Shown here piece by piece: positions 4,401 to 22,619 of a stretch of DNA of 64,000 nt (positions within the stretch are counted from its first letter, which is position 1; each line of letters begins with the position of its first letter). The DNA is from a virus (taxonomy: Duplodnaviria > Caudoviricetes), in IMG/VR virus record IMGVR_UViG_3300013121_000009, positions 54,426 through 118,425 of that record. One strand, 5' to 3'. A program made the position numbers and the translations under genes. The notes under the pieces were generated by a model. The model searched no databases. It saw only the letters and a list, made by a program, of their open reading frames with translations, and was not told where the DNA came from.

Positions 4401-7400
4401 ATCTTCATGTAATTCTGAAAATAATAATGAATATTGTCTCCAGAGTTCAATAATTCTTTCAGCATGTTCTTGACTAATATCTCCTTGTAAATACTGAGTT
4501 GTTGAATAGCCTGATTTAATAGTGCGAATTTCATCAAAGATAGTATCAACCATCTCTTTAGGATTAAGAGTTCTTTTTCCATCAGTAAAATCTTTATCAA
4601 TTTCTTTTAGAACTCTATAGTATTCGTCCTTATATTTATTTTCGAAATGAAGTAACTTATAAGCTTTAATATTAGCTTTAGCTTTATCAATTTCAATTTT
4701 AGCCTTAGCTTCAGCTAAAACATCACTCTTCTTCCTAGCTTCATCTTTGGCTTTAGTAGCCTTGTTTAACTCATATGTTAATTTATCTAGGTGATAGAAA
4801 ACATGCTCATCAATATCCGAGATTAGATGAAGTTGTTTATGTTCTAGCCCAGTCATTGTATCAATTCTGGAAACAACATAAATCAAATCTTGATTCATTT
4901 TTTTAATTCTATCACGAATATCACCAAAAACCTTTATTCTTTTTTCAAATTCTCTACCAAATCTTTCAGAATTTTCTATAGATTTAAATCTTAAATCCAT
5001 TAAGGAATCTTTTAGAATATTAGTAGAAGCAGATATAATATAGTCTGGGTTTGACATATTAGCCATAAAATTGGAATAGAACCAGTCTGAATCACCTAAT
5101 TCACCTTTAATCATTTCTCTAATTACAGATTCACTTGGTAAACTTTCTATTTCCTCTTGATATTTTTCAATATCATTTTGAATTTTTTTTCTTCTATTAT
5201 CATCAGCAGGTAGTGAATCTAAAAGTTGCTGTTTTTTCTGTTTTCTATCTATGAGTTCCCTTGCTACCCTATCTTTATATTCTTGTGGAAACTGAGCATT
5301 TAAAACTTTAGCAAGAACTGGTAGAGTTCTATCTTCATATGTTCTTTCTATTTGATCAATATAATCTAACCCTTTACCAACCATTTGTTTGAAAAGATTA
5401 CTATCTTCAACTTCTGCTAGGTGATTAAGTTTAATTTCTTCTAAAATAGGTCTATAAGAAACAGCTAGTAATTTTAGTTTGCCCCATTCTGACAACATGT
5501 CAAAATCATCTTCATATTCTTTACCAATCAATGAAAGCTGATTTTGTCTTATATTTTCTAGAGAATTACTAATTTGTTGAATAAAACCTAGGTACTGAAC
5601 AACAGATGCCCTAAAGACATCTATTCCTTTCTCTTTATTTTTAAAGATATGTATTATATTTGAACGTATTAACTTAATAACATCTTCTGAGAAGTCTCCA
5701 GATCTTTCTTGGAATTTATCAAAGAGATGTCTTTTGAATTCATCTTCTGAATTTCCATATTGCTTGATGGTTGACTCTATAATTTCGAAGATTTCTTCTA
5801 GTCCCTTGGAAAGATTTTCTGAATTCTTTAATTGGTTTTCTATAGTTTCACCTTCAAGTTCAAGTTGAGTTTTAACTCTAGGTCTTTCTACAGGAGTGTG
5901 TATAATCTTGTCAGCAAAGTTTTTGTTATACTTAACTTGGTATTTCTGTAATTGGTTTTTATCGAATGAATGTCTATTAGAAAATGGGTTGAAATCTATT
6001 TGTATAGGGAACTGGATAACTGGTTTTCCATTTCTAGAAGCTATTTCTACACTAATTGGAGAATCTTCAGTTTCTTGAATACCCTTTTCTCTTCCTATAA
6101 AGATAGGAACTATTTGTAAGTCAACTACTTTTATTCCAGTTAATTCTAGAAGTTTAGCATAGGCTGATAATTGCTTTTCGAAGTATTTTTGCCTAATCTT
6201 AGAAGCTGCTTGACCATCAAAACCAAAATACATCTCATCCATCTTTTTTTCAGAGATGTTATCTGCATCATCAGCTATCATTGGTAACATATTCTTAAAA
6301 TCATGAATAATAGCAGTACCATCTTCTAGAATTTCTATAATATCAGGTGTTCCAGCTACTCTATTATTCTGTTCTATCTGATTAATAGCTTTTCTATCTC
6401 CTAGAGTAACTTCAGTTAGAACTATTGAACCTTTGTCTCTGAGTGCTTGTACATATTTAGCTATATAATCAAGTATAGCTAAAGACACTTCCTTATTTCC
6501 ACCAAAGAATTTGTTTAAATCGGATTTTTCTGCTATCTCATTGAGATTAATTTTAGATATAGGTTTTCCTTGGTTTACCAATTGATTTAATAAGCTATGA
6601 ACAGCAGTACCTACTTCAGCAAACTCTAAGAATATGTTAGAGAATTTAGATACTTGTATCTTTTGAGATACAGAAATATAAGGTACTGTTATTCCTGTAT
6701 CATCTAGAGTAGAATATGTATGACCGACTGCTTCAAAATCAAATAAGTTTGTATTATCTATAACACTATCTAGAGATTCTTCCTGAGATACAGTTTTAGG
6801 CATATCCTGAAGATTCTTAATCTGATCTTCAGATAAGTGAAAATTAGTAGCACTTGGGATATCTCCTAAATTAATAGTAGTTCCTGTCTGCATTAAGTGC
6901 TTAATTAACTCTTGAGCAGACATATTAGGTAAATCCATAATATCAGATTGGATATCTGGATTAGAACCTATCATTCTTTCTACAAGACTTAAAAGCCAAT
7001 CCTTAAATTTTTGCCACCAACTTTTAGCCTTTTCATCATCTATAGCTCCAGACATCATTCTAGAAAGAGCCTGGGTTAGAAACTCTCTATTCAAATCTAG
7101 AATAGAATCATAAACATCTTTGTATTCTTCAAATATACTATCTTTTAACTCAGGAAATAATTGCTTTGCTTCTAATAGAAGACTTTGGTAAAGTGAGCTA
7201 TTTTCTACTTCTAATGCATTAACAAAGGGGTGTAGATACTCTTCAATAGCTACATCCTGAGTAACCCTTTCCTTTATTAAGTAAACGTTACCATTATGAT
7301 AAAAAGATATTACCTTCTTGTTAAGTTTATCTATAGCTCTGAACTGTCTTTGAATCTCTTCTGGGAGAGTACTTATTTGAGCTTCAGTAATGACTCTAGT

Positions 7401-8321
7401 TCTAATTTGTGGAAATAATTTAGAAAATCTGTCAATAATTGGTTTTATTGCACTTGAGAAAAACTTTTCTGGAGATATTGACTTGTTAATATTTAAGAAA
7501 ATTTTTTCTTCAGATTTTTCATCAATTTTTACTTCATTCCATGTATTTCCGTATTCGTCAGTAATTAATGCTGGGTTATATCCTTGTTTTTTAAGAATGT
7601 TAGTTACAGTGTTCTCATAGAAATTATAAATAGGTTTTAAAGCACCAAATCCTTCTTTTTCAATTCTATCAAGTTCTTGTTTAAGTTGTTTTATTTCATT
7701 ATTAATATCTTCTACATTTTTTAAAGAATCTTTTAAAGAACTTGTAGGGGATGCAGAATAAAAGTTTTCTCTACCATTTATTCTTCTAAATTCATTAGCT
7801 TCTTCTTCAGTATTAAAATAATGTTTTTTATTACCAGTTACCTCACTAACCAACCAAGGTTTATTATTACTTGCAGTTTTCTTTTTTTCTTCAAGTTCTT
7901 TAATCCTATCTTCTTTCTGCTTTTTAAACTCTTCTAAAGTAGTGTGGCCTTCTACTTTACTTGCTGTATTACCACTAGGAAATAATACTTTCTCATATCC
8001 TTTCTTAGCACTATCTTGTATAATAGATTTAACAAAGAATGTAACCCAGTTGTTATCTTTGTTTAGAAGTTGAAGAAATTGGTTTTCTTTAGTTTTAGAA
8101 AGTTCGTCTGCCCATTGCATAGCTTCCTTACCAGTAATTGACCCTTCTTTTTCAGCAGCCTCTAAATCTTTAGTATTAGTTAATAATTGATTAGTTCTAC
8201 CTTTTTGAAATACATCAGATTGTACTTCTAGTATTCTACGAGTTTTAGGTTGTTGACTTTGTAACAACTTAATTAATTCTCCTTCTGTGTATTTTACACC
8301 TTTATATTCGTAACAAGCCAT
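1419..8321 (-). CDS. giant virion cargo/polyvalent protein (half of an ExQSD domain, zincin-like EExxH, PD-(D/E)XK nuclease, long helical C-terminus)
   Basis: 2300 aa; RILEVQSD; EEYLH (7230-7244); GTAVH..EVTL..AGTPDII..IHDFK..QLSAY (~6100-6730); last gene of the cargo cluster as in crAss-like phages. Confidence 0.8.
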   Translation of the reverse strand: MACYEYKGVKYTEGELIKLLQSQQPKTRRILEVQSDVFQKGRTNQLLTNTKDLEAAEKEGSITGKEAMQWADELSKTKENQFLQLLNKDNNWVTFFVKSIIQDSAKKGYEKVLFPSGNTASKVEGHTTLEEFKKQKEDRIKELEEKKKTASNNKPWLVSEVTGNKKHYFNTEEEANEFRRINGRENFYSASPTSSLKDSLKNVEDINNEIKQLKQELDRIEKEGFGALKPIYNFYENTVTNILKKQGYNPALITDEYGNTWNEVKIDEKSEEKIFLNINKSISPEKFFSSAIKPIIDRFSKLFPQIRTRVITEAQISTLPEEIQRQFRAIDKLNKKVISFYHNGNVYLIKERVTQDVAIEEYLHPFVNALEVENSSLYQSLLLEAKQLFPELKDSIFEEYKDVYDSILDLNREFLTQALSRMMSGAIDDEKAKSWWQKFKDWLLSLVERMIGSNPDIQSDIMDLPNMSAQELIKHLMQTGTTINLGDIPSATNFHLSEDQIKNLQDMPKTVSQEESLDSVIDNTNLFDFEAVGHTYSTLDDTGITVPYISVSQKIQVSKFSNIFLEFAEVGTAVHSLLNQLVNQGKPISKINLNEIAEKSDLNKFFGGNKEVSLAILDYIAKYVQALRDKGSIVLTEVTLGDRKAINQIEQNNRVAGTPDIIEILEDGTAIIHDFKNMLPMIADDADNISEKKMDEMYFGFDGQAASKIRQKYFEKQLSAYAKLLELTGIKVVDLQIVPIFIGREKGIQETEDSPISVEIASRNGKPVIQFPIQIDFNPFSNRHSFDKNQLQKYQVKYNKNFADKIIHTPVERPRVKTQLELEGETIENQLKNSENLSKGLEEIFEIIESTIKQYGNSEDEFKRHLFDKFQERSGDFSEDVIKLIRSNIIHIFKNKEKGIDVFRASVVQYLGFIQQISNSLENIRQNQLSLIGKEYEDDFDMLSEWGKLKLLAVSYRPILEEIKLNHLAEVEDSNLFKQMVGKGLDYIDQIERTYEDRTLPVLAKVLNAQFPQEYKDRVARELIDRKQKKQQLLDSLPADDNRRKKIQNDIEKYQEEIESLPSESVIREMIKGELGDSDWFYSNFMANMSNPDYIISASTNILKDSLMDLRFKSIENSERFGREFEKRIKVFGDIRDRIKKMNQDLIYVVSRIDTMTGLEHKQLHLISDIDEHVFYHLDKLTYELNKATKAKDEARKKSDVLAEAKAKIEIDKAKANIKAYKLLHFENKYKDEYYRVLKEIDKDFTDGKRTLNPKEMVDTIFDEIRTIKSGYSTTQYLQGDISQEHAERIIELWRQYSLLFSELHEDGSPKTGIDKEVQQLLLKRRENLKKFRTTKTNIFLWQRLKQNMINDFGEDSREFAEWNARNSRTVLKPEFYEHRDEIFNMIETIMKEYQVGSDNTQERIQAVWKSLFRITAPYKNEGEFTTQIIPEATLKEVKGKELEIDRLKNSIESLGMTDEDKQTLYTLFDALSDLQVRENTEQYYEDYNRELSKFCARKSAETGTTITPNQVNIDPALFNEFKSTPWYSNSHLTIQKNTYKNGNLQVDENMNPIKKDEEIPIYIYRRTVPLDSNYYEEVPSLAYTTSFVNDEWLNPNYKDEFGRPKLKKTSKYYKPSQLEGDDNAGKASYIQLERGTSEKDRVNFENIQFLMKEMQEIQKGLNTSNKLYYAIPSIEKSTWERITDEGVYNTIKGSMRNLYQNAQDYSDGLKDLGLKDRHVLANLSGEETKFIPVRYSQDIDMEDQSYDVFGSILKYQMSATKAKILEKKLAFFETLEGALSSHKVKKEGFVNVVKDKLNKSLNLGLNVSVNSTDSTRLNNIRDLINRIFYDEFKKDLVSVNNMFTFGKTLTDTKIADAINSFAGKNMMFLNIPNWIVNFFSGNLQMLIEATGNQEFNFKEDFKRAKLYLIRPETIRDIVTDAGKTHDKSLFGQMLDFFDPLQGEFENEFGEKEQWSTRRAGAKNLFFFGKNMGEWELQVSTFIAMMNAKKVFKVTNGKRVAISLMDAFEKGDKGLPKIKDGIEYEEGVPLTYEHLKDFTNKIHAINKALNGSYAKFDQSLVEKYSVARLMIFMKKFFIPLFVNRFGMKRFDLEMGTYREGHYKVFIMTFLRDLIMYRQNVIKKLGATLAAPFVKDSSLTEQYTDQQVAAIKKTMIELYMMAGFMMLLLALGYYDDDDDGDAAMFAQYILLRIGHELQTSAPPISLQETYSVLKTPYVAMGSVGNLYNLLTNIIVTPINAVGSTMGYDWFEEDLYYQKDTPLFNKGDSKVVAQFMRALGLKLNITHPKQLLKSYDYMVQIN

Positions 8322-8809: not shown

Positions 8810-10191
8810 TATCCGCAAGGTACTTTTTTTATTGTTCCTGAAGCAATTAAATCTTCTAAAAATCCTGTAAAAGGATATTTGTCATCTGAACGAAACCAAC
8901 CAATACCATTATCAGTACTAAACTGTGCATGACCTTTAATAGAAGGTGTAATACCTGGAGTACTTATTTCATTCTCAGTATAATTAGTGCCACCTGGAAC
9001 TGTTAGATTAGAATAATATTGAGTTGGTTGTCCTTTTTCTTGTGATATAATACCTCTATCTGTATAAAACTCACTTTCTTCTGGAGCTATTGATTTAGTT
9101 GCAATAGCAGTATTAATCTCAACAGTATGAGAATAGTTAGCTAAAAGGTTGGTCAATATCTCCTCTCTATTTCTTGTACCAAAAGAAAGGATTAAATCTT
9201 TCTGTTCTTTAGGTATTTGAAGTTCTGTTAGAATTTTATCAATAGACCAACCATTTTTATCTCCTTTTCTAAATGTTTCATCGGCCTCAGGGCTCGATAA
9301 TATTTTTACTGATTTTAATGAATAATCAACATTAAATTGAGTTTTATTTGAAGGATTAAATGATGTTCTATTTTTCCAAATCTTTGAACCATCTTCTGTT
9401 TGAGTATATTTTGGTCCGAGTTTTTCTTTATATTTCATAGAATTTACTACAGGTTTCCCTGTAATATTTGCTATTTTTTGAAGAATTTCTGAGGCTATAC
9501 CTATACCTCTAATTTCGATTGGAAGTTGTATAAAATTTACAACTATTTCAGAACCCATATCTCTTATTATAACTTGGGATTGACCTGTTTCGAAGTCTTC
9601 TGAATTTTCATCTACAATTTGCTCTTTGCCAAGAAAAACATTAACATTCTGATTATCACCAGAAGTTCTTCCTAATTTTACAGTAATATTACTTCTAACT
9701 TTTGGAGTAGGTTTACTAAGATGAAATTGAATTTCCTTAGAGTTTTCTTTCTCAAATCTCCTATTTGTTTCCTTAATAATATCATCAATCTTCTGAACTT
9801 GTTCAGAAATTTCATTCTGAGAACTAGTATCTGAATCACCTTCATCATTGATAAAGTTAACTTCCTTATTAACTGTATTATAAGTATCCTTATATTTTTG
9901 CCAGTAAGTTTCTACCAGAGAGTCAGATGGCTTAATATAGATGTACTGCCCACCAGGGATTTGTCCTCTGGAAGCAATAGCTTCTTTGAAATTTGTATTA
10001 AGTTTTAAAACCATAGACTTGGCATAACCCTGTGCTAAATCTTGCCTTCCTTGAAATTTATCTATAGAAATAAATAAATCATTTCCTAGAGCAATAGCTT
10101 TAGGTTTTCCATCTCTATGTGCATTTATTACTAAATTCTGGGCCTTTTTGATAATCCCTTTTTCTATATCTATTCTACATTTTAAGCTCAT
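8809..10191 (-). CDS. virion cargo protein with GNAT-like domain and N-half of ExQSD domain
   Basis: Likely start ATG 10191 (TAATG overlap, MSLKC); IRGIGIASEIL GNAT motif A; PGGTNYTE...GHAQF..IGWFRSDD near C-terminus. Confidence 0.7.
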   Translation of the reverse strand: MSLKCRIDIEKGIIKKAQNLVINAHRDGKPKAIALGNDLFISIDKFQGRQDLAQGYAKSMVLKLNTNFKEAIASRGQIPGGQYIYIKPSDSLVETYWQKYKDTYNTVNKEVNFINDEGDSDTSSQNEISEQVQKIDDIIKETNRRFEKENSKEIQFHLSKPTPKVRSNITVKLGRTSGDNQNVNVFLGKEQIVDENSEDFETGQSQVIIRDMGSEIVVNFIQLPIEIRGIGIASEILQKIANITGKPVVNSMKYKEKLGPKYTQTEDGSKIWKNRTSFNPSNKTQFNVDYSLKSVKILSSPEADETFRKGDKNGWSIDKILTELQIPKEQKDLILSFGTRNREEILTNLLANYSHTVEINTAIATKSIAPEESEFYTDRGIISQEKGQPTQYYSNLTVPGGTNYTENEISTPGITPSIKGHAQFSTDNGIGWFRSDDKYPFTGFLEDLIASGTIKKVPCG

Positions 10192-13100
10192 TAGCAATTG
10201 TTTTCTTCTGTTAAATCAATTTCAGGTAATCCTTCTGGAGCCGCTAATATACGACTATTTTCTTCATTTTTAGTTTTTAATGCATATAATAATGGAGCTT
10301 CATAATGGAAATCCTTTAAATTCATTAAATATCCTGGAGGGCTTCCAATAATACCTGGAACATTTGGAACAAATTCAAGTTTTACACCAGGTATTTGTGA
10401 CATCCAATTATAGATAGTTCCTGTTTCATAGAATGCTCCAAATTTTTGAAGTACAAAGTTATGGAAAGTTTGGTCTGAAGTACTATTCTTAAGTTCAGCC
10501 TTTACCATTTCTTTCATAGCTTGTAAGGATGGTTCTTGTGTTAACATTGTATGTATTAAACCTAGAGAACCTCTTCTTGTAAGATACTCCTTGAATAATT
10601 GTTTTAATTCTTCATCTGTTCTTGGAATAATTTCTTCTCTACCTGCATACAAAGCAGCGGTTCTTACATTTCCTTGTGTTAATTTAGTAATTTCTGCTCC
10701 AGAAAAATACATAGGTACATCTTTACCAAAAGCTTTAATATGCTCTTGAATAGCTCTTGTAGCCAATGGCATAAAATATTGCTTTTCAAGTTCAAGTCTT
10801 TTATGTTCTTCATAAAGAATACTATTAATATCTTCATTGGCATTCTTAAGATTTTCTTTACTCTGTTCAATTCTCTCATTAGCAACTTTCTCAAAGTATG
10901 CAATTCTAGACTCTATAGAGTTATATTTTTCTACACTTTTGTCATAAGTCTTCTTATCAACTTTATAGAATTCAGTCCGTCCATTTCCAGCATAATATAT
11001 TTCATCATCTTTTTCAAATGCAAATCCTGCTGTACCATCTAGATTTATTGACGAATACTTTTCTTCCAGTGATTTTCCAGATTCGTCTCTAGCTTTTTCA
11101 TAATCTTCTTTAGAAATTTCAGTTGCAACTTCTTTTATTGGGAACATAGGTTGAAGGGAATCTTCTTTTCTAACATATTCATCTAAAGCTTTTTGAGCTT
11201 GAACTGCAACTTGTTCTTTAAGATTAACTTCATTACTTTGGACTACTGCAACAAGTTTTTGAAAAGTTCTTAAATCAACATATTTTAAGAAGTTTTCTTT
11301 AGTCTGTAATAAAGATTGGATTTTATAGTTTCTAACTTGATCCATTTTGAGAGTTGTTAATCTCTTAGTTGGAGCAGCTTGCATTCTTTTTGCTAAAAGA
11401 ATTAACATATATTCTACGTTATCAGATAACATATCAGATAATTCTGTTCCTCCTCTTCTTCTAGGTCTTCTAATAGGTCTTAATGTTAATATTGTATTTT
11501 CATTTCTTTTTTCTGCAACTTCTCCATCCACCATAGTAAGAGTATTGTTTCTATAGAAGTATTCCAAACCTGCATAGTTTTTGTCTACAAAATATTGGAA
11601 CATCTTTTTCTCTATTTTAGCAACTACTGGACTTTGTTCATACATTCTTTTTCTCTGTTCATAAGTTAAATATGGATCATCTTCCCAATCTGAATCCCAG
11701 TTTCTAGAATAATTAATCTTTTGAATTTCTTTACGTAATTCATTCAAATCTTCTTTAGTAAGAATTCTTTTTAAACCACCAGCTTTGAAAAAGTTAAACA
11801 TATCATGTTTTACTTCATATGTCTCATCAATTAATTTAGCAGTTCTAGCAATAGCCATTTCTACTGATTCTCCATAACTTCTTGATAAATCAATTGACTC
11901 CTGAAAGGCAGCTCTTAGAGCTTCGTAAGCTTCTTCAGAACTTCTATATCCACCTAAAGGATGATTTAATTTTTCTTCAATCATTTGATATAAGAAAGAC
12001 TTACTTCTTGATGGTAAAGTTGCATTATAGATGTTAACTTTTGGGGCCTGCGGAGTTAAATTTCCTATATTTTCTTCCTTAATTCTTTCTATTTCTTCTA
12101 TTCTTCTATTTAAGTCAGCTTCAAGGTTAGGAATCTTTGCAGAATCCATTTTCTCTTTATTATCATTTTGTAACTCATGGAATAAAACAGCATCTTTAAC
12201 TTTCGAATCTTTTGAAGAATAAAAATAGGTTAAGTTTACCCAAGAGTTAGGTGCAAGATTAAAGTGACCTCCGCCTTTGAATACAGTATCATTGAATCTT
12301 AAACTTATTTTATTATGATAAATTTCTCTTTTTCCAGCTAATCCTAATTCTGCAATTAATTGGTCTCTTCTTTCAACTGTTATATTTCCAGCTTGTACCT
12401 CTGCTTCAATTTGAGCCATGTCGTAGTTCTTACTTGATACTCTATCTGGAACATTGATAAATGTTTGGTCAACTCTATAGCTTAGATACTTTTGCTCTTT
12501 GGCAAAACCTAATACATAGTTTAATTTTAAGAAATTATGAACTTCATTAACAAACTCTTCACCTGTTATACTTTTCAGAGAAGGATTTTCTTTTTTAATT
12601 AAGTCAATTATTGATTTGTATATATTAAGCTCTTCCTTTTTAACTCCATCTAATTTAAATTCTTGACTTAAAACTATAGGGTGTTTTCTAAATTTCTCTA
12701 AAATCTTAGGAAGACCTCTTAAAGCAGGTGATATCCCATTAATATATTCATTATTTCTTTTGAGGTCTTCTATTTCAGAAGGTGTAAGTTTTCTAGTAAT
12801 TCCTACTGAAGTTCCTTGTTTTACTGTCCATACTTCTGGATACCATTGTGCCCTGAAGTTTTTTGAATCTGCAATATCATAGAATCTTTTTATAGTTTTC
12901 TTTAAGAATTTAGTCTTAAGTTTAAATTGATTATTAAATAAACTATCTAAAAACTTCTTAGAGCTTTCTACTTCTATAACTTTTTTATTAGGATTTACTT
13001 CATCTTCATCTAATACTTCATCTGAGAAATAAACCTTTTTATTTAATTCTCTATATTCTTCTGGAGTCATTAAATCTGTCATATCTCCTGAGAGAATCTT

Positions 13101-16100
13101 CATCGCAGCTACTTCAAAAGGGTCATTTCTTAAAGCTTTGAATCTTGCCAGCAAGTTATTAATCCACTCTACGAATTTCTTTAAGAATGAATAGTCTGCT
13201 GGAGAACCGTGCTTTTCTTGAATTCTATGTATTGCTTCAGCTACAAGTTGTCCTATAGCTTCTTCTTTTAAAGTACTAAAATTATTGTAGTTAAATAACT
13301 CTCCATATTTAGTTTTGATTAATTCTTCAGCTTTTTTAGTAGAAGTTGCTGAATTCCATAATAATCTACTTAAAACTGAGTCTTTTCTTAATAGTCTATA
13401 CCAGAAGTGAGCAGCTTCTTCAGGAAGTTTATTCCAAGCTTCAGGTCTAGTTTCTAAGTTGTCTACAATATCTACTGTCATATCTATAAAGTTAGCAGCA
13501 GCTATAGCATCTCCTACTACAGTTCCATTTTGGTCTATAATATCAGGTACTAATCTTTCAGGGATTCCTAATTCTTGTAAGAAATTAGATACAGCATTCA
13601 GAGTATTAATATGAAACTCCATTTGCGTATCATCCTCAGTATCTAAACCAAAGAGTTGTTCTCTTGGAGTATTCATATCCATCTTGTAACCAGTCTTTAA
13701 GTCTACATTTTCTATATAGATTTCACCTGTTTCCTTACTTACTAAGTCGTAGTACCCATTGGCATTTCTAATCCAAGATGAATTGTGTGGTGCTTTTTTA
13801 TTCTTTCCGAATTCTTTAAGGAAAGATGCAGCAGTGAAGAATTCTCTTGGTTTATCAGGTAATCTATTAAATCTTTCAATATCTACGTCATCAATAATCT
13901 TTTCTCTTCTGAAACCTTTTTCTGGAGCTGTATCTAGAGAATAATCTTTATATCTCATAGATTCTACTCTTGTGAGATTTCCAGATACTTTTCTCTGACC
14001 TTTTCCTCTGAATTTATTATTGTTAGCATAGAATAACTCAGTAAATGAATTTAAAGCATTGGCTTTTTCATTAATTGATAGTTTTTCGTATTCGTTAACA
14101 GCATAGTCTAGTAATCTAGATATAACTTCTGGATTAATAACATCTGTAGAAGAAATAGGAGTTTTATTTAACCCTGACTGGAAGAATGATAAGAAAGCGA
14201 ATTTCTTCATAAATTCTTGAGTGTCAGGATTATTTTCCAATTCTTCAAATTGGTCTATATAGTCATTCTGTAACTGAATATCTTTATTAAAATAAATGAG
14301 GGCTATATTCTTAATCTTATCAGACATTTCTGAATTCTGATTAGATGTAGAAATAACTAGGTTATCAATAATAGAGTACATTTCCTTAAGTTTAGGGTAT
14401 TTACTTTTAAGTTCTCCTAATTCTAAATAAAGTTTAAATAGAAGTTCTTTACCAAAAGCTACTGGATCTGACTCAAATTTACTGAATGAACCAAACTGTG
14501 ACTCAAAGTATTTCATACCTTCATCAGAATTCTTAAGGAAGTTCTGGAAAATAAAATGAACGAAGTCATTCTTGAAAGTTCTTTCATAAGCTTCGTGAAG
14601 TCTTTTAGGTAAATCCGAACCTTTTCGATCTTCCATTTCTTTATAGATTCTATCATTTAGTTGTGGAGAGTTTAGGATTGGAAGGACTTTATTAGCTATT
14701 TCACTTGAGAAATCAGAAGTATCAAATATAGAAACTATTGAATGATTCTTAATCTTATCAAAGTTAATAAGCATACGTTTATCCTGAACAGCCTGGTAAT
14801 CTTTTTCTCTCCTGTAGGCATTAAATGAGCTTTTTGTCATAGCTGTATCAAAGTTTACAGAAGATTGAGCTTCTCTAAAGTCTGATGCTATTCCTTCCAT
14901 AGCTATAAACTGCCATAGATATAAAGCTTGAACTTGAGCTTCATTTTTATTTCCTATAAAGTATTGGTTAGATTTTCCTAAATATTTATTAAGAACTTCG
15001 GACTCTAAAAGTGCACCTGGATTGGTTCCTGCTCTATGTAAAGTTCCTTCCATAGAAATAAATGGAGAAGACTCATCTGTCGGAAGACCTACATATTTTA
15101 AAGCTTCATGAATTGGATTAAATCTTTTAGTAATAGATTTAGATTCTAGTTCTTGTTTAGCTATAACATATTTTTTAATAATTGGTTGATTTAATAAGAA
15201 TACTATATTCTTAATTGGTAAACCCATATGTAATCCCAGGAATAAAACTGGAGCTGTACTTGTTCCAATATTAACATAACCAGATTTTGGATTATTGGCT
15301 ATATCTACATAAAGGTTAATAAGCTGAGAGATAGCTGTAGCTTTTGAAACTCCATTTAATAATTTAGATTTAGCTAGAGAAATATTTCCTTCGCTATCTC
15401 TTAATCCATTAAATAGAATTAGGTTTTTTTCTAAATATTCAGCAGAAATTTTAACATTAGCTTCTGCAAGTAATTTAGTAAATGTATTAGCTTGAGCTGC
15501 TATACCTAGGGAGTCTTTTCCTTGATAAAGTGAGTCTGCTTTATCTTCATTAACAGTAGGAGAGAACATTTTAGTTAGCTTAACATCTGTGTTAACTTTT
15601 TCTGTTTGTTTATCAACAAGTTCTGGGTTATTAATTCTGATTAACCTATCTATTAATTCATCAAATAAATATGTAGAGTTTGGTGTAATTAAATTAAGAA
15701 GATTGTCAGGTCTTAGAATAACTTCTTCAGCTACTCTGATAATTTCATTCTCTAAAGAACCTTTGTAATTAAAGAAATCCCACTCAGCTTTTTGAGCTTT
15801 TTGTCTAAATTCATTTAATTCTTCTGATAAATCAAAAGAATAACCCCAGATTCTTTCATAAAGTTCTGATATTTCAGGGATTTCCTTAACTGCTTTAATT
15901 TTAGTTTTTCTTCCATCTACAGTAAATGTATTTGATACATATTTTTCAAGTTCTTCTTTCTCAAAGTTTTTAGCCTTAATAATTGATGATAAAGTAATTC
16001 TATCGTCAATAGCTTTAAGGATATCCAGCATAGTTATCACTCTATCATTATAGTCTTGTAATAACTTGTTCTTAATATCATAAAATGGAGTTTCTTCAGA

Positions 16101-19100
16101 TAAATCAGTGTACTCATCAAATATAGCTTTTAAGAATGAAGCATTATTCACCTTTAGGAAATTTCTAATTTCTTGAGATATTGTAAACTTCTGATTATCA
16201 GATTCTTTTCTGATAGTTTTCCATTCATCAAATAATTGCATCATCTCTGCATAAATCTTATTCTTTTCCTTGAAGAGTTCATTAAGTTCTATCTCATCAA
16301 TAAGATTTCTTTTTTCTCTTCTATGAACAGCCAAGTCATTTTTTAATTCAGAAATTCTATCAAATATCTTTTGTTTAATCTTAGCTCTTTCAGAGAAAGC
16401 GTAATTAGTAAGAACTCTTTTTTCTTCTTTGATGCGAGTTTTAGCTTTTTTAAGTTCATCCATAGCTTGAAGCATAGGAATTTCAGCTTCGTTCTTAGTT
16501 TGGAACTTCCTAGTAATGTAATTACCTTCATTGTCTATATTAGGCATGAATGTATTCAATTTGTCAATATCAAAGTCAGAACCAGATTTAGCTGTCATCT
16601 CTGTTGGTACTATAATAATGGAACCTGCTCTTTCTGGTAGGAATTCTTTAATTTCCATTACTTCCATAGAGTTATGTTCCTGAGTAGGAATACGATAACC
16701 AACTATAGTTAAAGATTGAGAATCAATTCTTCCTTGAGCTATCAGACTATTAAGTCTTTCCAGAGTACCAATTGGTTCTCCATCAATTTCGCGCTTTAGA
16801 AGTTTCTTGAACTCACCTGAAAGTGCTACTTTAATTTGAGATTTTCTGATAAGAGTATCTCCAGCTTTATAGTAATATGTTCTTAAATCGTTAGTACCAT
16901 TCTCCAGGGATGTAGATTGGGAAGAACCAAATTTCTCCCATCCAGTACTTGAAACCTGAATTTTCATTTCTCCCCTGGTTTTTTGACGTACTAGTCTTTT
17001 GTTTAATACAGCCTGAATAATAGAATCAATTACAGATCTTTGTAGAGAAACATCTAACCTATTTTTGAATTCTCCTGATGGGAGTAACTCAAAAGTTTTT
17101 AAGATATTCTTATTAATAACTTTCTTCTCGATTTCTTTCTTAATAAAGTCGATGAATTTAACTTTATCATGAATATTATAGTTTCCACCTGCATCTTTAG
17201 TAATAGATGCAACCTTAAAGATACTTTCTCTTTCTATATCTGTAAGTTCTTGAATAAGACTTTTATATTTAGTGAAGGCTTCTTTTAGTTCTGGAGTTGT
17301 TTCTCCTTCATCGAATGTATCAAAAAGTAGCTTTCTAAACTGAGTTCCGAATATAAGTCTAGTATCAATCTCTGGAGAGATTTTTACTTGTTCTTTAATA
17401 TTATCAAGAAAGCCTTCTCTAACAGAATAAGTTCCTTTATCCTGTGAATAAGTATCTAGAAGAGAATGAATAGTATGTGGAATTCTAGCTTCTAAATCAA
17501 TGTCATAGAATTGATCAGGTTTCTGAGTTTCAGCTTTATCTCCAGATTTAAATAGAGCATAATCAGCATCTTCTATCACCATTCTCTCCATATGTTTTTC
17601 CCAATTGGTACCAGCAACTGCTTGTGGTATAATTGGAAATACTGAGAACTTGTGAAAACCTATTTCCTGTATAACATCATTTTTAATATTACCAAAGTAC
17701 TGAAGTTTTTGAGGCTGAAAGTAAGATATCTCTTCTTCATTCAATTCGTTCTTAATCAATTGATCTCTTAGTTCCTGTGAAACAGTTTCATTTCTTTGTT
17801 CAAGATTATTAATTTTTCTATTTAGCATATCCCACTGAATAGCTTTCATATAGGCTTCCTGCATTCTATCATCCCATCTTCCTGATAGCATTTGCATTTT
17901 TCTAAAGAAATCTAAAGTAATAGCACCCTGTCCATCTGTTTCATTTACAGAACTATAAGCTTTTATAATAGTATCTCTTACAGCCATAAGCTGTGCTCTT
18001 CTTGAGTCTGAGAGATTTTCTTTTCTTAATTGTACATCCACTAATTCTACGTAGTGTTCTAAATATGCAGATTTTGGCTTAATATCATCAAATACTATAA
18101 ATCGAGTAATTCTTGAAGAAGCTTCTCTTTGAGAAATTTTAGGGAATTCCGCTCCTGTAATCTCCTTAAAGGAAGCTTTCATCAAACCTCTTTGAGTTAC
18201 TTGAGATAAATCTTCAAAATCTTTTAATAGTTGTTCATCTGTAGTTGGAATAGTTCCTGTAGCAGATCCTCCAGCTACACGCTTATGAGGGTCATTATAG
18301 AAGAATGTATTTCCAAATATAAGCTTGGAAGATTCTATATTAAAAGCTATTTGATTAGTAATATATTTTCTTATAAAGTTGTCTTTTTGATTTTCTGTCC
18401 CAGTAACATGTTTCCAGACTCCTTTATCTTTCATATATTTGATATGTTTAGCTACTTCTTTATTTAAGAAGATATTAATGCTAGTATCAATGTCAGCTTG
18501 ATTTTTAGCTATAACTCTATCAATATCATCAATATTCTTAGCTTCTAGAAGAGCTTCTCTTAGTCCTGGAACTTCAGATACTATGTCACGGAAGATACCA
18601 AATTGGTACCCTTCTTCATTTTTAATATTTCCTGAAAGTTTTACAAGTTTAGTTAATTCTGGATTACCATCCCTGTGAGAAACCATAATAGCTAATTCAT
18701 CTCTCAGATATCCTTCCATAGCAAGTTTGAACTCCTGAGAGTTTCTTACTAAAGGGCCTTTAAGACCAAAAGCATAGAACATAGATTTATCACCTAATTG
18801 AATTGTAGGATAAATATTATGATTTACCAGATAATGTGCATCCATAAGAACCTTATCTCCAATATAAAGAGATTTAGTTTTATCACCTTCTGTCTCAGAA
18901 CCTGGATTTCTTTCTGATGCCATACCATTATAGTTATGTATAGCAATAGGTTCAACATCTTTTCTAGAACCATCTCTATTGAAATAGTAAGAAAGAAGTT
19001 GAGAGTTTCTCATATCTAAGAAACCTTTATTATTTAAGAATCCTTTATAGTGTTCAAATCCAGGGATTTGTATAATAGATTGAAGAGAAGGATAGTTTTT

Positions 19101-22100
19101 AGTATCATTTAGAATACCCATAACTGTGTGAATTCTATTCCACATAGTTTGTTCATATTCTGTTTTACCATCAGCATTTCTCACTGAATTAGAAATGTAA
19201 GAATCTTCATATTTATCATATGCTGTAAGTAATCTTGTCACAAATGATTTTACACTTGATGTTCGATCCCATTTTTTCTGGGTATCCCAATTGAAAGTAA
19301 GAGCGTCATCATATCCTATATCTGTTCCTAGAACTTGGTAAATATCCTTAATAGGATTACCACTCTTTCTGGAAGCTTCTCTTTTTAACCATAGAACTAT
19401 GTGTTCTTTTACATATCCCATTTGAGATGCTAGTCCTGACTTATTTAATAATTCAAGAGTAATAGGAATTCCTAGATTTCTATAGAATTCTAGTGCACTA
19501 CCTTTGAAGTTTTCTATCTCATTTATAGTTTTTTCATCATAATTAATTACAGTTTCTCCATCAGCATTATTTGAGATAAATTTAGTAGGTTTAGTAAGTA
19601 AGAATTGAGATCTTAAATTAGCATGGATTTTTTCTTTATTAAGATTAGTAATTGGAGAGTCTTTAAACTCAAGTTCTCCAGCCATTCCATCTTCATCCCA
19701 GTTCTTATCAATAAACATTATTTTAAGAGGTGTTGAAGGTCTTGAAAATGTAGCTAAGAATCTAGCTTTCATATTAAAAGCAGAACTAGAACTACCTGCT
19801 AAAAGTCTATCCATTATTATTTTAATCTCAGGGTATTTTTTAGACAATGCTTCCATAATAGCTAATTGTCCATTAGATCCATATAAATTTTTTACTCCTG
19901 AAAGATTTCTAGTAAGAATACCTATAATCTTTCTAGCATCTATTAATCTTGGAAGACCAAATTCTGGGTCTAAATATCCAGGAATTGATATAGATTCTAT
20001 CATTCTTACAATATTTGGATCTGTATAATCATAAAATGATTGTTCAGAAGCTACGTTATCATTGTAAGAGTCTCTTCCTTTATTTTCAAATTGATTACTT
20101 TCTGGATCTTTATATACAAAAGTTCCATCTTCTTCAATATCAAAATCTTTCGAAATATTCGAAATGGTTTTTGACTGTGCTAGATGTGCATCTTTAACGC
20201 CTTTATTATTATTGTCTCCCCAATTGTCAAGAATTCTTTGTTGATTAGCAATAATAGGGTCTGTTTTAGCTGCTTCTTCACCAATAGCTTCTATTCTTTC
20301 TAGTTTTAAATATTCGATATAGTCTTTTACTAGCCCGTAGAGTGAGTCTAGTTTTTTAATTTTCTTGATATCAAGAGTTGTGTATCCTTTAGAATATAAA
20401 ACTTCAGTTACTATTGCTTCTACTCCATTAATAATTTTAGTATAATCTCGGCTAGAAAAAGCTGGAGATATATCTGAATTTAAATTAGAAAAGTAGATAT
20501 TATCTGTTGAAGGGACTCTTCCTTGAAAATCTCCTTTCTTAAGTGTTTTATATAATGTGTCTAAAGAAACATCCTTAGAGCCAAACAAGCTCTTTAAGAA
20601 AGCCCATATCTTCTCAAATATAGACTTTCTCACTGGATAATCTCCTAGAATTTTGCCTGTTTGGTCGAATTTTGAGAAATCCCTGGCAATGAATTCTTCC
20701 ACTTCAAGATCTGAAGCATTCTTAAGCTTTGATACTTTTTCTCTAGTTTCGTCATAAAGTTTCTTTTTCTCGTCTTTTGTTAAGTAAAGCTGTGAGAAAT
20801 GGTGCCAAGCTTCATGGAATAAGTCAGCTCTAGTAGCACCTTTATATAAGGTAATGGCTGATGCTGACCAAGTTGCCCATGCACTTGAGTTAACTATTTC
20901 TGCTAAATTTTGTACGTTTACATCTCCAAAGATACGTTTAACTTCTTCAATATCTGTATTTGTTACCTTTAAGGAAGGTACTGGAACTTGCTTTTTGCTA
21001 GATTCTAGCTTAGTTCCTTTGATTTTATCCTGGAGAGCTTTTTTTCTTTTTGATACTTCTGATTTATCTGGAATAATGTTTTCTTTCTCTGTAAGAGTAG
21101 AATTATCTGTAGAAATAACTAGAGACTCTGAAGTAGGTTCTTGAATTTCCTCTTGTTTTATAATAGATTTATTAGATATTTTAGGTTCTAATAATTGTAA
21201 TTCTTTTTCTAATTCATTGAGTCTATTTTTTAACTCCAGAATATCTTCTTCAGTAATTTCTTCACCTTTTTCTTTCTTAGTTCTAATTCTAGCTACAAGT
21301 AAATATAATCCTGCTAGTGCTTGTGAACTACTTCCTAAAATATTACTCAACGCTTTTTTAAGACTTGCAATTCTATCATCCAAAGTCTTAATAACTATTT
21401 CTGGAGATTTATTATTTAACCAATCAGCATAGGTTTTTACATTTTCAGCAGAAAAATAATTTCTTAAATATTCTGAATAACTTTCAATTGAGCCTACTTC
21501 TGGTAAAATATAGAAAGATACATCATCTGTTAACTGATTTTCAATTGAAGAAAATATTTCTTTATTAATTCCCATACATCCCATTGAAGCAGCATTATTA
21601 GTAGGATCTGAATCTCTTAATAATTGTTCTCTTACTTTTAAATTAGCATGAAATCCTATATATGAAGTCTCTCCTGTATTTTCTCTATAAACCCCCGTTC
21701 CTTGTAATACCCATTTATACTTAGCTCCATAATCTTTATCTTCAGCTTTTTTGGCTTGATATACTCCTGCTGGAGTAATTTTTAACTTAGCTATTTCATA
21801 TTCTTCTTGAGAATATCCTATTTTAGCTAATTCATCTGATTTTCTAATATCTCCTTTATTTTTTCCTATAACGATATCTCCAGAATAAACTATTCTTCCA
21901 TCAGCTTTAAATATAGTTACATTTCTTTGTTTTTTATTTACTACTACATAATCTCTGTCTCCATATTTTTGTTTATGGAGTTTATTAAGATTATCAAAAT
22001 TTAAAGTCTCATTAGTTATTATTTCTATAGTTTGAGCATTGTTGAAATTTGCTGTTTGTATAGAAACAGCACTTACACTTGAAAAAGATATAGCTCCTAT

Positions 22101-22619
22101 AATAGCAACCTTGATTACTCTATTATATAATTTCTTTAAAATTTCTAGAATTTTATCAGAAAAACCTTTAAATCCAGCCTGAAGTTTTGACAAAGATGAT
22201 GCAACATACTCTTCTTTAGTTTGCCCTTCTTTATCAGCTTCTTCTTGAAGAATTTTTATTTCTTCATCTGATAACTCTTCATTGATTGCATCAGAAATTG
22301 TTTCATTTATTTTTTCTTCATTAGCCTTTTCTTCATCCTTTGGGGGATTAATTTCGTTAAAAAGTTGTTTAATTTCATTAATCTCAGCTTTAATTTCAGC
22401 TACTCTAATATCTATTTGTTCCTGAGAAAGCTCATCAGATATTGCTGGTATTTTCAAACTTTCTTTCAAAGAATTTAATTTATCTTCCAACTTTGAATGG
22501 TTTTCTTGTATAAGTGAGCTAGCAAGAACTTTTTGTTCTTGTTCACTCATTCCATCTTTGTAAAGTTTTTCAAACTCTTTCTCTAGGCTTGTACCTTTAA
22601 AACAACTTCTTACTGACAT
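10191..22619 (-). CDS. crAss-like virion RNA polymerase polyprotein with YkuD-like and zincin domains
   Basis: YRIPTQ...SGSDFDIDKL (DFDID 16563-16577) and TDGQG, as in phi14:2 gp66-type single-chain RNAPs; HEAWH 20802-20816; FH..SMGC YkuD-like ~21498-21953; EEAAH 13407-13421. Confidence 0.92.
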   Translation of the reverse strand: MSVRSCFKGTSLEKEFEKLYKDGMSEQEQKVLASSLIQENHSKLEDKLNSLKESLKIPAISDELSQEQIDIRVAEIKAEINEIKQLFNEINPPKDEEKANEEKINETISDAINEELSDEEIKILQEEADKEGQTKEEYVASSLSKLQAGFKGFSDKILEILKKLYNRVIKVAIIGAISFSSVSAVSIQTANFNNAQTIEIITNETLNFDNLNKLHKQKYGDRDYVVVNKKQRNVTIFKADGRIVYSGDIVIGKNKGDIRKSDELAKIGYSQEEYEIAKLKITPAGVYQAKKAEDKDYGAKYKWVLQGTGVYRENTGETSYIGFHANLKVREQLLRDSDPTNNAASMGCMGINKEIFSSIENQLTDDVSFYILPEVGSIESYSEYLRNYFSAENVKTYADWLNNKSPEIVIKTLDDRIASLKKALSNILGSSSQALAGLYLLVARIRTKKEKGEEITEEDILELKNRLNELEKELQLLEPKISNKSIIKQEEIQEPTSESLVISTDNSTLTEKENIIPDKSEVSKRKKALQDKIKGTKLESSKKQVPVPSLKVTNTDIEEVKRIFGDVNVQNLAEIVNSSAWATWSASAITLYKGATRADLFHEAWHHFSQLYLTKDEKKKLYDETREKVSKLKNASDLEVEEFIARDFSKFDQTGKILGDYPVRKSIFEKIWAFLKSLFGSKDVSLDTLYKTLKKGDFQGRVPSTDNIYFSNLNSDISPAFSSRDYTKIINGVEAIVTEVLYSKGYTTLDIKKIKKLDSLYGLVKDYIEYLKLERIEAIGEEAAKTDPIIANQQRILDNWGDNNNKGVKDAHLAQSKTISNISKDFDIEEDGTFVYKDPESNQFENKGRDSYNDNVASEQSFYDYTDPNIVRMIESISIPGYLDPEFGLPRLIDARKIIGILTRNLSGVKNLYGSNGQLAIMEALSKKYPEIKIIMDRLLAGSSSSAFNMKARFLATFSRPSTPLKIMFIDKNWDEDGMAGELEFKDSPITNLNKEKIHANLRSQFLLTKPTKFISNNADGETVINYDEKTINEIENFKGSALEFYRNLGIPITLELLNKSGLASQMGYVKEHIVLWLKREASRKSGNPIKDIYQVLGTDIGYDDALTFNWDTQKKWDRTSSVKSFVTRLLTAYDKYEDSYISNSVRNADGKTEYEQTMWNRIHTVMGILNDTKNYPSLQSIIQIPGFEHYKGFLNNKGFLDMRNSQLLSYYFNRDGSRKDVEPIAIHNYNGMASERNPGSETEGDKTKSLYIGDKVLMDAHYLVNHNIYPTIQLGDKSMFYAFGLKGPLVRNSQEFKLAMEGYLRDELAIMVSHRDGNPELTKLVKLSGNIKNEEGYQFGIFRDIVSEVPGLREALLEAKNIDDIDRVIAKNQADIDTSINIFLNKEVAKHIKYMKDKGVWKHVTGTENQKDNFIRKYITNQIAFNIESSKLIFGNTFFYNDPHKRVAGGSATGTIPTTDEQLLKDFEDLSQVTQRGLMKASFKEITGAEFPKISQREASSRITRFIVFDDIKPKSAYLEHYVELVDVQLRKENLSDSRRAQLMAVRDTIIKAYSSVNETDGQGAITLDFFRKMQMLSGRWDDRMQEAYMKAIQWDMLNRKINNLEQRNETVSQELRDQLIKNELNEEEISYFQPQKLQYFGNIKNDVIQEIGFHKFSVFPIIPQAVAGTNWEKHMERMVIEDADYALFKSGDKAETQKPDQFYDIDLEARIPHTIHSLLDTYSQDKGTYSVREGFLDNIKEQVKISPEIDTRLIFGTQFRKLLFDTFDEGETTPELKEAFTKYKSLIQELTDIERESIFKVASITKDAGGNYNIHDKVKFIDFIKKEIEKKVINKNILKTFELLPSGEFKNRLDVSLQRSVIDSIIQAVLNKRLVRQKTRGEMKIQVSSTGWEKFGSSQSTSLENGTNDLRTYYYKAGDTLIRKSQIKVALSGEFKKLLKREIDGEPIGTLERLNSLIAQGRIDSQSLTIVGYRIPTQEHNSMEVMEIKEFLPERAGSIIIVPTEMTAKSGSDFDIDKLNTFMPNIDNEGNYITRKFQTKNEAEIPMLQAMDELKKAKTRIKEEKRVLTNYAFSERAKIKQKIFDRISELKNDLAVHRREKRNLIDEIELNELFKEKNKIYAEMMQLFDEWKTIRKESDNQKFTISQEIRNFLKVNNASFLKAIFDEYTDLSEETPFYDIKNKLLQDYNDRVITMLDILKAIDDRITLSSIIKAKNFEKEELEKYVSNTFTVDGRKTKIKAVKEIPEISELYERIWGYSFDLSEELNEFRQKAQKAEWDFFNYKGSLENEIIRVAEEVILRPDNLLNLITPNSTYLFDELIDRLIRINNPELVDKQTEKVNTDVKLTKMFSPTVNEDKADSLYQGKDSLGIAAQANTFTKLLAEANVKISAEYLEKNLILFNGLRDSEGNISLAKSKLLNGVSKATAISQLINLYVDIANNPKSGYVNIGTSTAPVLFLGLHMGLPIKNIVFLLNQPIIKKYVIAKQELESKSITKRFNPIHEALKYVGLPTDESSPFISMEGTLHRAGTNPGALLESEVLNKYLGKSNQYFIGNKNEAQVQALYLWQFIAMEGIASDFREAQSSVNFDTAMTKSSFNAYRREKDYQAVQDKRMLINFDKIKNHSIVSIFDTSDFSSEIANKVLPILNSPQLNDRIYKEMEDRKGSDLPKRLHEAYERTFKNDFVHFIFQNFLKNSDEGMKYFESQFGSFSKFESDPVAFGKELLFKLYLELGELKSKYPKLKEMYSIIDNLVISTSNQNSEMSDKIKNIALIYFNKDIQLQNDYIDQFEELENNPDTQEFMKKFAFLSFFQSGLNKTPISSTDVINPEVISRLLDYAVNEYEKLSINEKANALNSFTELFYANNNKFRGKGQRKVSGNLTRVESMRYKDYSLDTAPEKGFRREKIIDDVDIERFNRLPDKPREFFTAASFLKEFGKNKKAPHNSSWIRNANGYYDLVSKETGEIYIENVDLKTGYKMDMNTPREQLFGLDTEDDTQMEFHINTLNAVSNFLQELGIPERLVPDIIDQNGTVVGDAIAAANFIDMTVDIVDNLETRPEAWNKLPEEAAHFWYRLLRKDSVLSRLLWNSATSTKKAEELIKTKYGELFNYNNFSTLKEEAIGQLVAEAIHRIQEKHGSPADYSFLKKFVEWINNLLARFKALRNDPFEVAAMKILSGDMTDLMTPEEYRELNKKVYFSDEVLDEDEVNPNKKVIEVESSKKFLDSLFNNQFKLKTKFLKKTIKRFYDIADSKNFRAQWYPEVWTVKQGTSVGITRKLTPSEIEDLKRNNEYINGISPALRGLPKILEKFRKHPIVLSQEFKLDGVKKEELNIYKSIIDLIKKENPSLKSITGEEFVNEVHNFLKLNYVLGFAKEQKYLSYRVDQTFINVPDRVSSKNYDMAQIEAEVQAGNITVERRDQLIAELGLAGKREIYHNKISLRFNDTVFKGGGHFNLAPNSWVNLTYFYSSKDSKVKDAVLFHELQNDNKEKMDSAKIPNLEADLNRRIEEIERIKEENIGNLTPQAPKVNIYNATLPSRSKSFLYQMIEEKLNHPLGGYRSSEEAYEALRAAFQESIDLSRSYGESVEMAIARTAKLIDETYEVKHDMFNFFKAGGLKRILTKEDLNELRKEIQKINYSRNWDSDWEDDPYLTYEQRKRMYEQSPVVAKIEKKMFQYFVDKNYAGLEYFYRNNTLTMVDGEVAEKRNENTILTLRPIRRPRRRGGTELSDMLSDNVEYMLILLAKRMQAAPTKRLTTLKMDQVRNYKIQSLLQTKENFLKYVDLRTFQKLVAVVQSNEVNLKEQVAVQAQKALDEYVRKEDSLQPMFPIKEVATEISKEDYEKARDESGKSLEEKYSSINLDGTAGFAFEKDDEIYYAGNGRTEFYKVDKKTYDKSVEKYNSIESRIAYFEKVANERIEQSKENLKNANEDINSILYEEHKRLELEKQYFMPLATRAIQEHIKAFGKDVPMYFSGAEITKLTQGNVRTAALYAGREEIIPRTDEELKQLFKEYLTRRGSLGLIHTMLTQEPSLQAMKEMVKAELKNSTSDQTFHNFVLQKFGAFYETGTIYNWMSQIPGVKLEFVPNVPGIIGSPPGYLMNLKDFHYEAPLLYALKTKNEENSRILAAPEGLPEIDLTEENNC

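Follow-up and report, generated by a model that had tools for sequence, protein, structure and literature searches.

A YkuD-fold domain in a predicted membrane hairpin of a giant crass-like virion RNA polymerase protein

The 64,000-nucleotide stretch of viral DNA analysed here (the window, to which all nucleotide positions below refer) covers positions 54,426 to 118,425 of IMG/VR record IMGVR_UViG_3300013121_000009 (Duplodnaviria; Caudoviricetes). It encodes, on the minus strand at 10191..22619, a giant uninterrupted open reading frame (ORF) of 4,142 amino acids (aa), P0001, which is a crassvirus cargo protein containing an RNA polymerase (RNAP) and which carries, in its N-terminal part, a YkuD domain of the L,D-transpeptidase fold. 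What is new in this analysis, as read from the sequences, is that the domain lies in a membrane-flanked cassette with a predicted hairpin, that this cassette recurs in other giant proteins, and that these proteins are nearly devoid of cysteine while the cysteine of YkuD is spared. The domain, by its predicted activity, probably acts on the host wall during protein injection; the more specific proposal that the cassette is a wall-acting hydrolase module held in a membrane hairpin and operating during ejection is a functional prediction to which we give about an even chance. Crassviruses have to pass megadaltons of cargo protein and a polymerase across the Bacteroidota envelope, and peptidoglycan goes unmentioned in the structural atlas of PhiCrAss001 (PMC10172136). 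In the literature on crAss phages or Crassvirales combined with YkuD, transpeptidase or peptidoglycan, we found no description of YkuD in crassvirus cargo or polymerase proteins.

Results

The YkuD domain occupies 21495..21953 on the minus strand (aa 223-375 of P0001). The original prediction, made from the sequence alone, had placed a YkuD-like domain at 21498-21953, which corresponds to aa 223-374 on the minus strand, and the strings on which it relied (VVVNKKQRNVTIF, ITPAGVY, IGFH, AASMGCMGI and YILPE) are all present. PF03734 (YkuD) agrees with this assignment, matching aa 223-353 with 26.4 bits when the whole protein is searched and with 31.3 bits (E 3.5e-7) when a 300-aa piece is used, in both cases above the curated Pfam gathering cut-off of 23.4 bits. 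A six-frame search of the genome gave 32.2 bits for YkuD, and this copy is the only one in it. The conserved motifs of the domain are DK/NKK, GxxxGD, TPAG, H324, R330, N342, SMGC348MG and YILPE. His324 (codon 21648..21650, minus strand) is the predicted catalytic base and Cys348 (codon 21576..21578, minus strand), the sole internal cysteine of P0001, is the predicted nucleophile; both residues are invariant among the relatives in 11-sequence alignments.

An AlphaFold2 (AF2) model covering aa 191-420 and built from an 11-sequence alignment has a mean predicted local distance difference test (pLDDT) score of 64.6, rising to 85-88 in the beta core. With this model Foldseek returned 56 PDB matches at E<=1e-3; apart from one entry for a multidomain peptidoglycan enzyme, those listed are L,D-transpeptidases and their hydrolytic kin (Bd1075, Pgp2, Csd6 and DpaA). 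VIA-align superposed B. subtilis YkuD (1Y7M) on the model with Z 14.0 and a root-mean-square deviation of 2.3 Å over 112 residues; it found 84 chains at Z>=8, and all 50 of the entries listed are L,D-transpeptidase-fold proteins. The original prediction was to be abandoned if there were no YkuD fold, and it is the YkuD fold that structure prediction gave. The alignment profile reaches Bd1075 (E 9e-4, the best profile match; entry 7O21 in the PDB) as well as E. faecium Ldtfm, with the TPAG, H and [ST]xGC of the family falling on the TPAG, IH and SHGCIN of Ldtfm. As a single sequence, the 230-aa domain found nothing in the PDB at E<=10 with phmmer, and PHROGs has no family for either the giant protein or its 300-aa YkuD piece. 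Profile and model together indicate that P0001 has a genuine YkuD-fold Cys/His enzyme domain, of which the activity is predicted. Its likeness to the YkuD family (B. subtilis YkuD, Ldtfm, M. tuberculosis LdtMt2) consists in the Pfam match, the fold (Z 13-14) and the aligned TPxG, His and [ST]xGC. The family is one of exported cellular enzymes, whereas here two hydrophobic segments enclose a domain that forms part of a phage protein of 4,142 aa.

Further along the same ORF lies the polymerase. The region homologous to the virion RNAP of phi14:2, gp66, extends over 15126..18491 (minus strand; aa 1377-2498): blastp with gp66 gave E 5e-26 over aa 1377-2139, with alignments reaching across aa 1377-2498. 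The one PDB entry matched by P0001 is 6VR4, the crass-like virion RNAP phi14:2 gp66 itself (phmmer, E 2e-16, aa 1499-2136), and within the aligned region falls the sequence GSDFDIDKL, of which the DFDID motif (aa 2015-2019) is encoded at nt 16563-16577 on the minus strand. In tblastn searches the polymerase region was matched by 99 crass-like phage records at ~25% identity. By homology, then, P0001 contains a crass-type virion RNA polymerase core, and the original prediction that YkuD is fused into the N-terminal part of the virion RNAP protein is upheld, as the same ORF matches gp66 at E 2e-16. That a polymerase of this type is present in the virion and ejected would follow from the proteomics of phi14:2 and PhiCrAss001. 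Between YkuD and the polymerase there is a HEAWH motif (20802..20816, minus strand; aa 602-606) that is zincin-like, a metal-protease assignment made from the motif only, which no HMM match accompanies; the giant relative P0003 has an HExxH-type motif in a similar context. A zincin domain has been described among the RNAP-associated proteins of crass phages, some of which have these proteins joined as one giant protein (bioRxiv 10.1101/2020.03.07.982082).

The source record is 118,425 nt long, is estimated to be 97% complete and has ~30% G+C; the window is its second half. Its gene content points to a Crassvirales-like phage because it has a crassvirus muzzle protein (1,589 aa; 45007..49776, minus strand; PF25731, 172.9 bits), polymerase matches to the 99 crass-like records and a gp65-like neighbour. 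The last of these is a 2,300-aa protein (1419..8321, minus strand; E 2e-12) homologous to phi14:2 gp65, which is RNAP-associated, and it sits downstream of the giant ORF in the same arrangement as in phi14:2. Similarity to the cargo of phi14:2 (gp65, gp66 and gp67) and PhiCrAss001 (gp47, gp49 and gp50) thus comprises gp66 homology with DFDID, the gp65-like protein downstream, the muzzle upstream and cysteines confined to the ends of proteins. The start ATG of the giant ORF overlaps the stop codon of the preceding gene. In the same gene block a Cys-free, cargo-like protein of 924 aa (35355..38129, minus strand) has a phage tail lysozyme domain (PF18013, 113.6 bits, aa 308-436) and is likely, on that match, to be a second virion-borne wall enzyme, so that the phage may bring glycan-cutting as well as peptide-acting enzymes into the envelope.

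The catalytic signature of the YkuD domain, which had been described as retained, is so in part: the His324/Cys348 pair is kept, and the surrounding signature is reduced to S-M-G-C-M-G. In the literature on Ldtfm and LdtMt2 the canonical motif is reportedly H-x(14-17)-[S/T]-H-G-C-h-N/R. The local sequence of P0001, H324-x23-S-M-G-C-M-G, departs from this in having no His at C-2, no Asn or Arg at C+2 and a gap of 23 residues between His and Cys, as against the 14-17 said to be usual; where canonical YkuD enzymes have S-H-G-C-h-N/R, P0001 has S-M-G-C-M-G. In its nearest relatives C+2 is S, G or A and C-2 is not His, and a second group of giants retains GC[IV]N. Many L,D-transpeptidases have an exposed Arg at C+2 and a groove with two entrances, whereas the hydrolase DpaA has an Ala and a single-entrance cleft (PMC10653827). 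Among the hydrolases of this fold, namely DpaA (E. coli, LdtF), Csd6 (H. pylori), Pgp2 (C. jejuni) and Bd1075 (Bdellovibrio), Bd1075 is the top Foldseek match of the P0001 model and the other three are in the top 30. The small C+2 residue of DpaA (Ala145) is comparable to the Gly at C+2 of the P0001 domain, which differs from the hydrolytic enzymes in having no NTF2-like partner domain. Because the C+2 residue is small and hydrolases are among the top fold matches, sequence and model weakly favour hydrolysis over cross-linking.

The domain is the centre of a cassette of ~400 aa that consists, in order, of an acidic stretch ending in ..T.EEF(V/I), a basic amphipathic helix, hydrophobic segment 1, a linker of ~35 aa, YkuD, a helical extension, hydrophobic segment 2, a basic cluster and an acidic helix. 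In P0001 the acidic helical N-terminal region (22170..22619, minus strand, like all parts of the cassette; aa 1-150) ends in the conserved cassette start, ..TKEEYV.., and BLAST alignments with relatives start at aa 14-111. It is followed by the basic amphipathic helix and segment 1 (22050..22169; aa 151-190, with segment 1, or TM1, at aa 164-190) and by the linker to the catalytic domain (21954..22049; aa 191-222). Beyond YkuD come the helical extension (21351..21494; aa 376-423), conserved with the nearest relatives as YxxYL..(T/S)(F/Y)xx(F/W)L, and then the short segment 2 (TM2, aa 424-443) with the basic cluster RIRTKKEK (21267..21350; aa 424-451). The conserved acidic helix GEEITEEDILELKNRL (21210..21266; aa 452-470) closes the cassette. 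Across cassettes the consensus of this helix is GEEIT.EDI..LK.RL, and the basic clusters read RIRTKKEK, RKRR, KKKR and RRRR.

On the Kyte-Doolittle (KD) scale TM1 of P0001 scores 1.84, which is in the top 0.02% of the protein, with a net charge of +2 before it and -1 after it; TM2 scores 1.32-1.48 (top 0.15%). Segment 1 stands ~160-240 aa before the YkuD Cys in 10 of 12 giants, where it ranks in the top 0.01-0.7% of each protein's 19-mers by hydrophobicity and has a net charge of +1 to +5 before and -2 to +1 after. Segment 2 and its basic cluster are present in P0001, P0002, P0005, P0006 and P0014, and absent from P0003 and P0004, where the cassette ends the protein. With basic residues before segment 1 and a basic cluster after segment 2, the positive-inside rule predicts a hairpin in which the N-terminus is inside, YkuD is outside in the periplasm, and the remainder of the protein, including the polymerase, is inside in the cytoplasm. 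The original prediction had noted the hydrophobic stretch VIKVAIIGAISFSSVSAVS preceding the domain (aa 168-186, just upstream of the span it gave for YkuD) and had reasoned that the protein must either be processed or span the envelope. The second hydrophobic segment and the basic flanks favour spanning, though the protein may be processed. The idea that the stretch upstream of YkuD might be an N-terminal signal peptide was rejected, since in relatives it is thousands of residues internal. In the small cellular relatives an N-terminal anchor, such as exported enzymes would have, is as far from the Cys as segment 1 is in the giants, and the cassette therefore looks, from its sequence, like a captured membrane-anchored periplasmic enzyme.

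Membrane-type segments are found in other RNAP-associated cargo proteins as well. The 2,300-aa protein (aa 2152-2173) and phi14:2 gp65 (aa 1290-1312) have in common a strongly hydrophobic segment near the C-terminus, and in phi14:2 gp67 there are two, both close to the N-terminus (aa 91-109 and 168-192).

P0001 has three cysteines only: C6, C348 and C4142, which is its last residue. Of the 12,624 residues in the window's cargo-like ORFs 8 are Cys (0.06%), as against 136 of 6,817 (2.0%) in the other ORFs. The eleven YkuD-bearing giants together have 21 Cys in 39,042 aa (0.05%), and 11 of these 21 are the YkuD Cys, which is the sole cysteine of P0014 (7,308 aa), P0007 (4,466 aa), P0008 (2,672 aa) and P0015 (2,019 aa). 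The keeping of this residue in proteins otherwise nearly free of cysteine is, among sequence arguments, strong evidence that the thiol is needed, and it disfavours a dead binding module. The depletion itself would be compatible with proteins that cross the oxidising periplasm unfolded.

Where the consecutive RNAP-associated cargo proteins do have cysteines (those with termini within 1419-31638 of the window), they are almost only at the ends. A 1574-aa protein has one Cys, fifth from the end, and a 462-aa protein has one near the start and another second from the end; the 2300-aa protein has C3 plus an internal C1496. The pattern in phi14:2 is the same: the only cysteine of gp67 is its last residue, gp66 has just C3 and one in the penultimate position, and gp65 has just C3. 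In P0002-P0006 there are also cysteines 1-4 residues from the C-terminus. These terminal positions suggest that split cargo proteins could be linked head to tail by disulfides.

An exhaustive HMMER search with aa 141-440 against 1.84 billion representatives found 22 relatives, most of which are giant metagenomic proteins of 860-7,308 aa, several of them on contigs of 94-133 kb. Similarity reaches well past YkuD, as between aa 73-499 of P0001 and aa 1379-1783 of P0002, and the cassette is found at the start, in the middle or at the end of different giants. Two giants besides P0001 hold the polymerase motif. The order is YkuD, HExxH and DFDID in P0001; P0002 has YkuD around residue 1650 and, close to residue 3,500, ADLDVDKLY; and in P0003 HEAFH is at 1692, MGYRIPT...GYDFDVDKLY at 3051 and YkuD at 4218, in a C-terminal cassette. 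The cassette is also present in giants where no polymerase motif was seen. Neither the DFDID of P0014 nor the DYDGD of P0007 was accepted as evidence for a polymerase, their contexts being unlike the GYRIPT...DFDxDKL region. P0003 and P0007 had no match in the PDB, and with phmmer the RNAP region of P0001 had none among the giant relatives. The 300-aa piece matched none of 50,697 phage records by tblastn, pattern scans of IMG/VR with this piece and with P0003 gave no relatives, and a word-indexed search among proteins of 2,278-7,249 aa returned the query itself only.

In a tree of the 22 domains the long branch of P0001 prevents its placement. The giants form two or more groups, and the tree thus does not show a single origin of the cassette. 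In the second group (P0007, P0008, P0012, P0015 and P0016) the YkuD motif is the canonical GC[IV]N, and a hydrophobic segment precedes the domain with no second one after it; this group clusters with small cellular enzymes, a hint that the YkuD domain was captured more than once.

Discussion

Crassvirus RNAP-associated proteins are virion cargo and are ejected partly unfolded (PMC10172136). On the footing of domain identity and fold, conservation of the catalytic pair, the architecture and recurrence of the cassette, polymerase homology and the crassvirus context, we infer every step of the following mechanism. P0001 would be made in the cytoplasm, packed into the capsid and, when the phage infects, threaded through the tail in unfolded form. 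Its two hydrophobic segments would lodge as a hairpin in the cytoplasmic membrane with their basic flanks inside, and YkuD would refold in the periplasm, where Cys348, activated by His324, would attack the meso-diaminopimelate carbonyl of stem peptides in the host peptidoglycan. The acyl-enzyme would most likely be resolved by water, so that the domain would behave as an L,D-carboxypeptidase, an L,D-endopeptidase or an amidase-type hydrolase, and the wall would be thinned or opened locally, beside the tail-lysozyme cargo protein. The downstream zincin-like and polymerase parts would enter the cytoplasm and might either remain tethered at the entry site or later be cut free.

Wall enzymes on ejected proteins are known, as T7 gp16, an ejected podovirus protein, has an N-terminal lytic transglycosylase domain. 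P0001 resembles T7 gp16 and the N4 virion RNAP (vRNAP), gp50, in having a wall-active or membrane-binding module on a large ejected protein that ends at the inner membrane. T7 gp16, however, is glycan-cleaving whereas the fold in P0001 is that of a Cys/His stem-peptide enzyme, and the polymerase of N4 is of the T7-like type rather than the crass two-barrel type of P0001. In the N4 model the N-terminal domain of vRNAP is at the inner membrane with the polymerase tethered there, and a peptidoglycan-hydrolysing activity is required yet was not found among the ejection proteins (PMC13434306); in this lack of a wall enzyme the N4 ejection proteins are unlike P0001.

Several observations weigh against a hydrolase module in a membrane hairpin. 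The segments are moderately hydrophobic, with approximate Hessa sums of +2 to +4 kcal/mol and approximate insertion energies for TM1 and TM2 of P0001 of +3.7 and +3.9 kcal/mol, and a second AF2 model (aa 141-470), in which TM1 has a pLDDT <50, is uninformative on the hairpin. The distant giants P0007, P0008, P0012, P0015 and P0016 have TM1 but no clear TM2, even though hundreds to thousands of further residues follow in them. Whether the domain is a hydrolase or a transpeptidase is judged from one position, C+2, which is a weak basis, and a carboxypeptidase reaction alone would not open the wall mesh. Finally, the complete genomes of the five nearest reference crassviruses (phi14:2, cr108_1, cr4_1, cr111_1 and cr10_1) gave no match to YkuD. 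The domain is therefore accessory, and the cassette, on this comparison of sequences, is an accessory insertion.

Less probable alternatives are a covalent anchor and a cross-linking role. In the first case, a transpeptidase or a long-lived acyl-enzyme would tie the membrane-embedded N-terminal part of P0001 to the host sacculus and so hold the conduit, with the polymerase tethered to it, where entry takes place. YkuD enzymes become linked to the stem peptide through a thioester, and E. coli LdtA-C attach a protein, Lpp, to peptidoglycan (PMC10653827). Membrane-type segments flank the cassette, as would be expected of an anchor; loss of the C-2 His and of the C+2 Asn or Arg could slow deacylation, and a separate cargo protein with a tail lysozyme domain can already do the cutting. 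Yet no acceptor Lys or Gly tail or other attachment motif was identified, the missing C+2 groove residue argues against chemistry with two substrates, and a thioester link is labile, so that we consider an anchor unlikely. It is tempting to extend the idea to a self-anchoring device, with the hairpin in the cytoplasmic membrane, the reduced YkuD site in a lasting covalent link to the sacculus, and the conduit and polymerase riveted in place so that early transcription would help to pull the genome in. We regard this as a long shot; if true, it would establish a new class of injected proteins, ones that hijack the wall by covalent attachment.

Cross-linking might instead serve to repair or reseal the wall, the injected enzyme making 3-3 cross-links round the puncture and thereby preventing lysis from without or blocking later phages. 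The fold is that of true L,D-transpeptidases, and the lysozyme-bearing cargo protein causes damage that perhaps needs containment. We find this improbable, however, as the nearest group lacks the canonical C-2 His and C+2 Asn or Arg, the few copies per virion would permit few cross-links, and the literature searched offered no precedent.

Rather than acting at entry, the domain could have a role in the producing cell, where it might serve in lysis as an extra enzyme or, as a Cys/His protease, mature the giant protein or the cargo chain. The known targets of YkuD enzymes are the L,D bonds of stem peptides and not ribosomal peptide bonds, and the zincin-like motif is already there for processing. 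P0001 has no cleavable N-terminal signal peptide with which to reach the wall from inside, and the phage has lysis genes of its own, including one for a LysM endolysin (59982-60737). A role of this kind is thus hard to credit, even though the giant proteins of crass phages are presumed to undergo cleavage into components (bioRxiv 10.1101/2020.03.07.982082) and PhaLP lists YkuD, with 10 entries, among the rare catalytic domains of phage lytic proteins (PMC8310338). A catalytically dead wall-binding module that serves to position the protein could account for the reduced SMGCMG motif and the longer than canonical His-Cys spacing, but it is very improbable given that His and Cys are invariant and that this Cys persists where nearly all others have been lost, P0014 having no other in its 7,308 aa.

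A hydrolase acting on the wall during ejection is thus the reading we prefer. A wall enzyme with a Cys nucleophile between membrane segments of a polymerase protein makes it possible to test which part of the protein is retained in the envelope, what bond the enzyme attacks and with what residue, and, as carbapenems are inhibitors of L,D-transpeptidases, whether these compounds block entry. The near-absence of cysteine except at the active site and at protein ends is moreover a simple rule that may help to recognise ejected proteins, and their key residues, in uncultured phages.

Other features of the window

Among the giant cargo genes are two GIY-YIG-type homing endonuclease genes, both on the minus strand (8324-8818 and 34457-35236; phrog_314, E ~1e-31), the first of which separates the 462-aa ORF from the 2300-aa ORF. 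A few genes away from the LysM endolysin gene, a 235-aa protein (54456-55163, minus strand) matches PAS_3 with 28.1 bits against a cut-off of 25.6.

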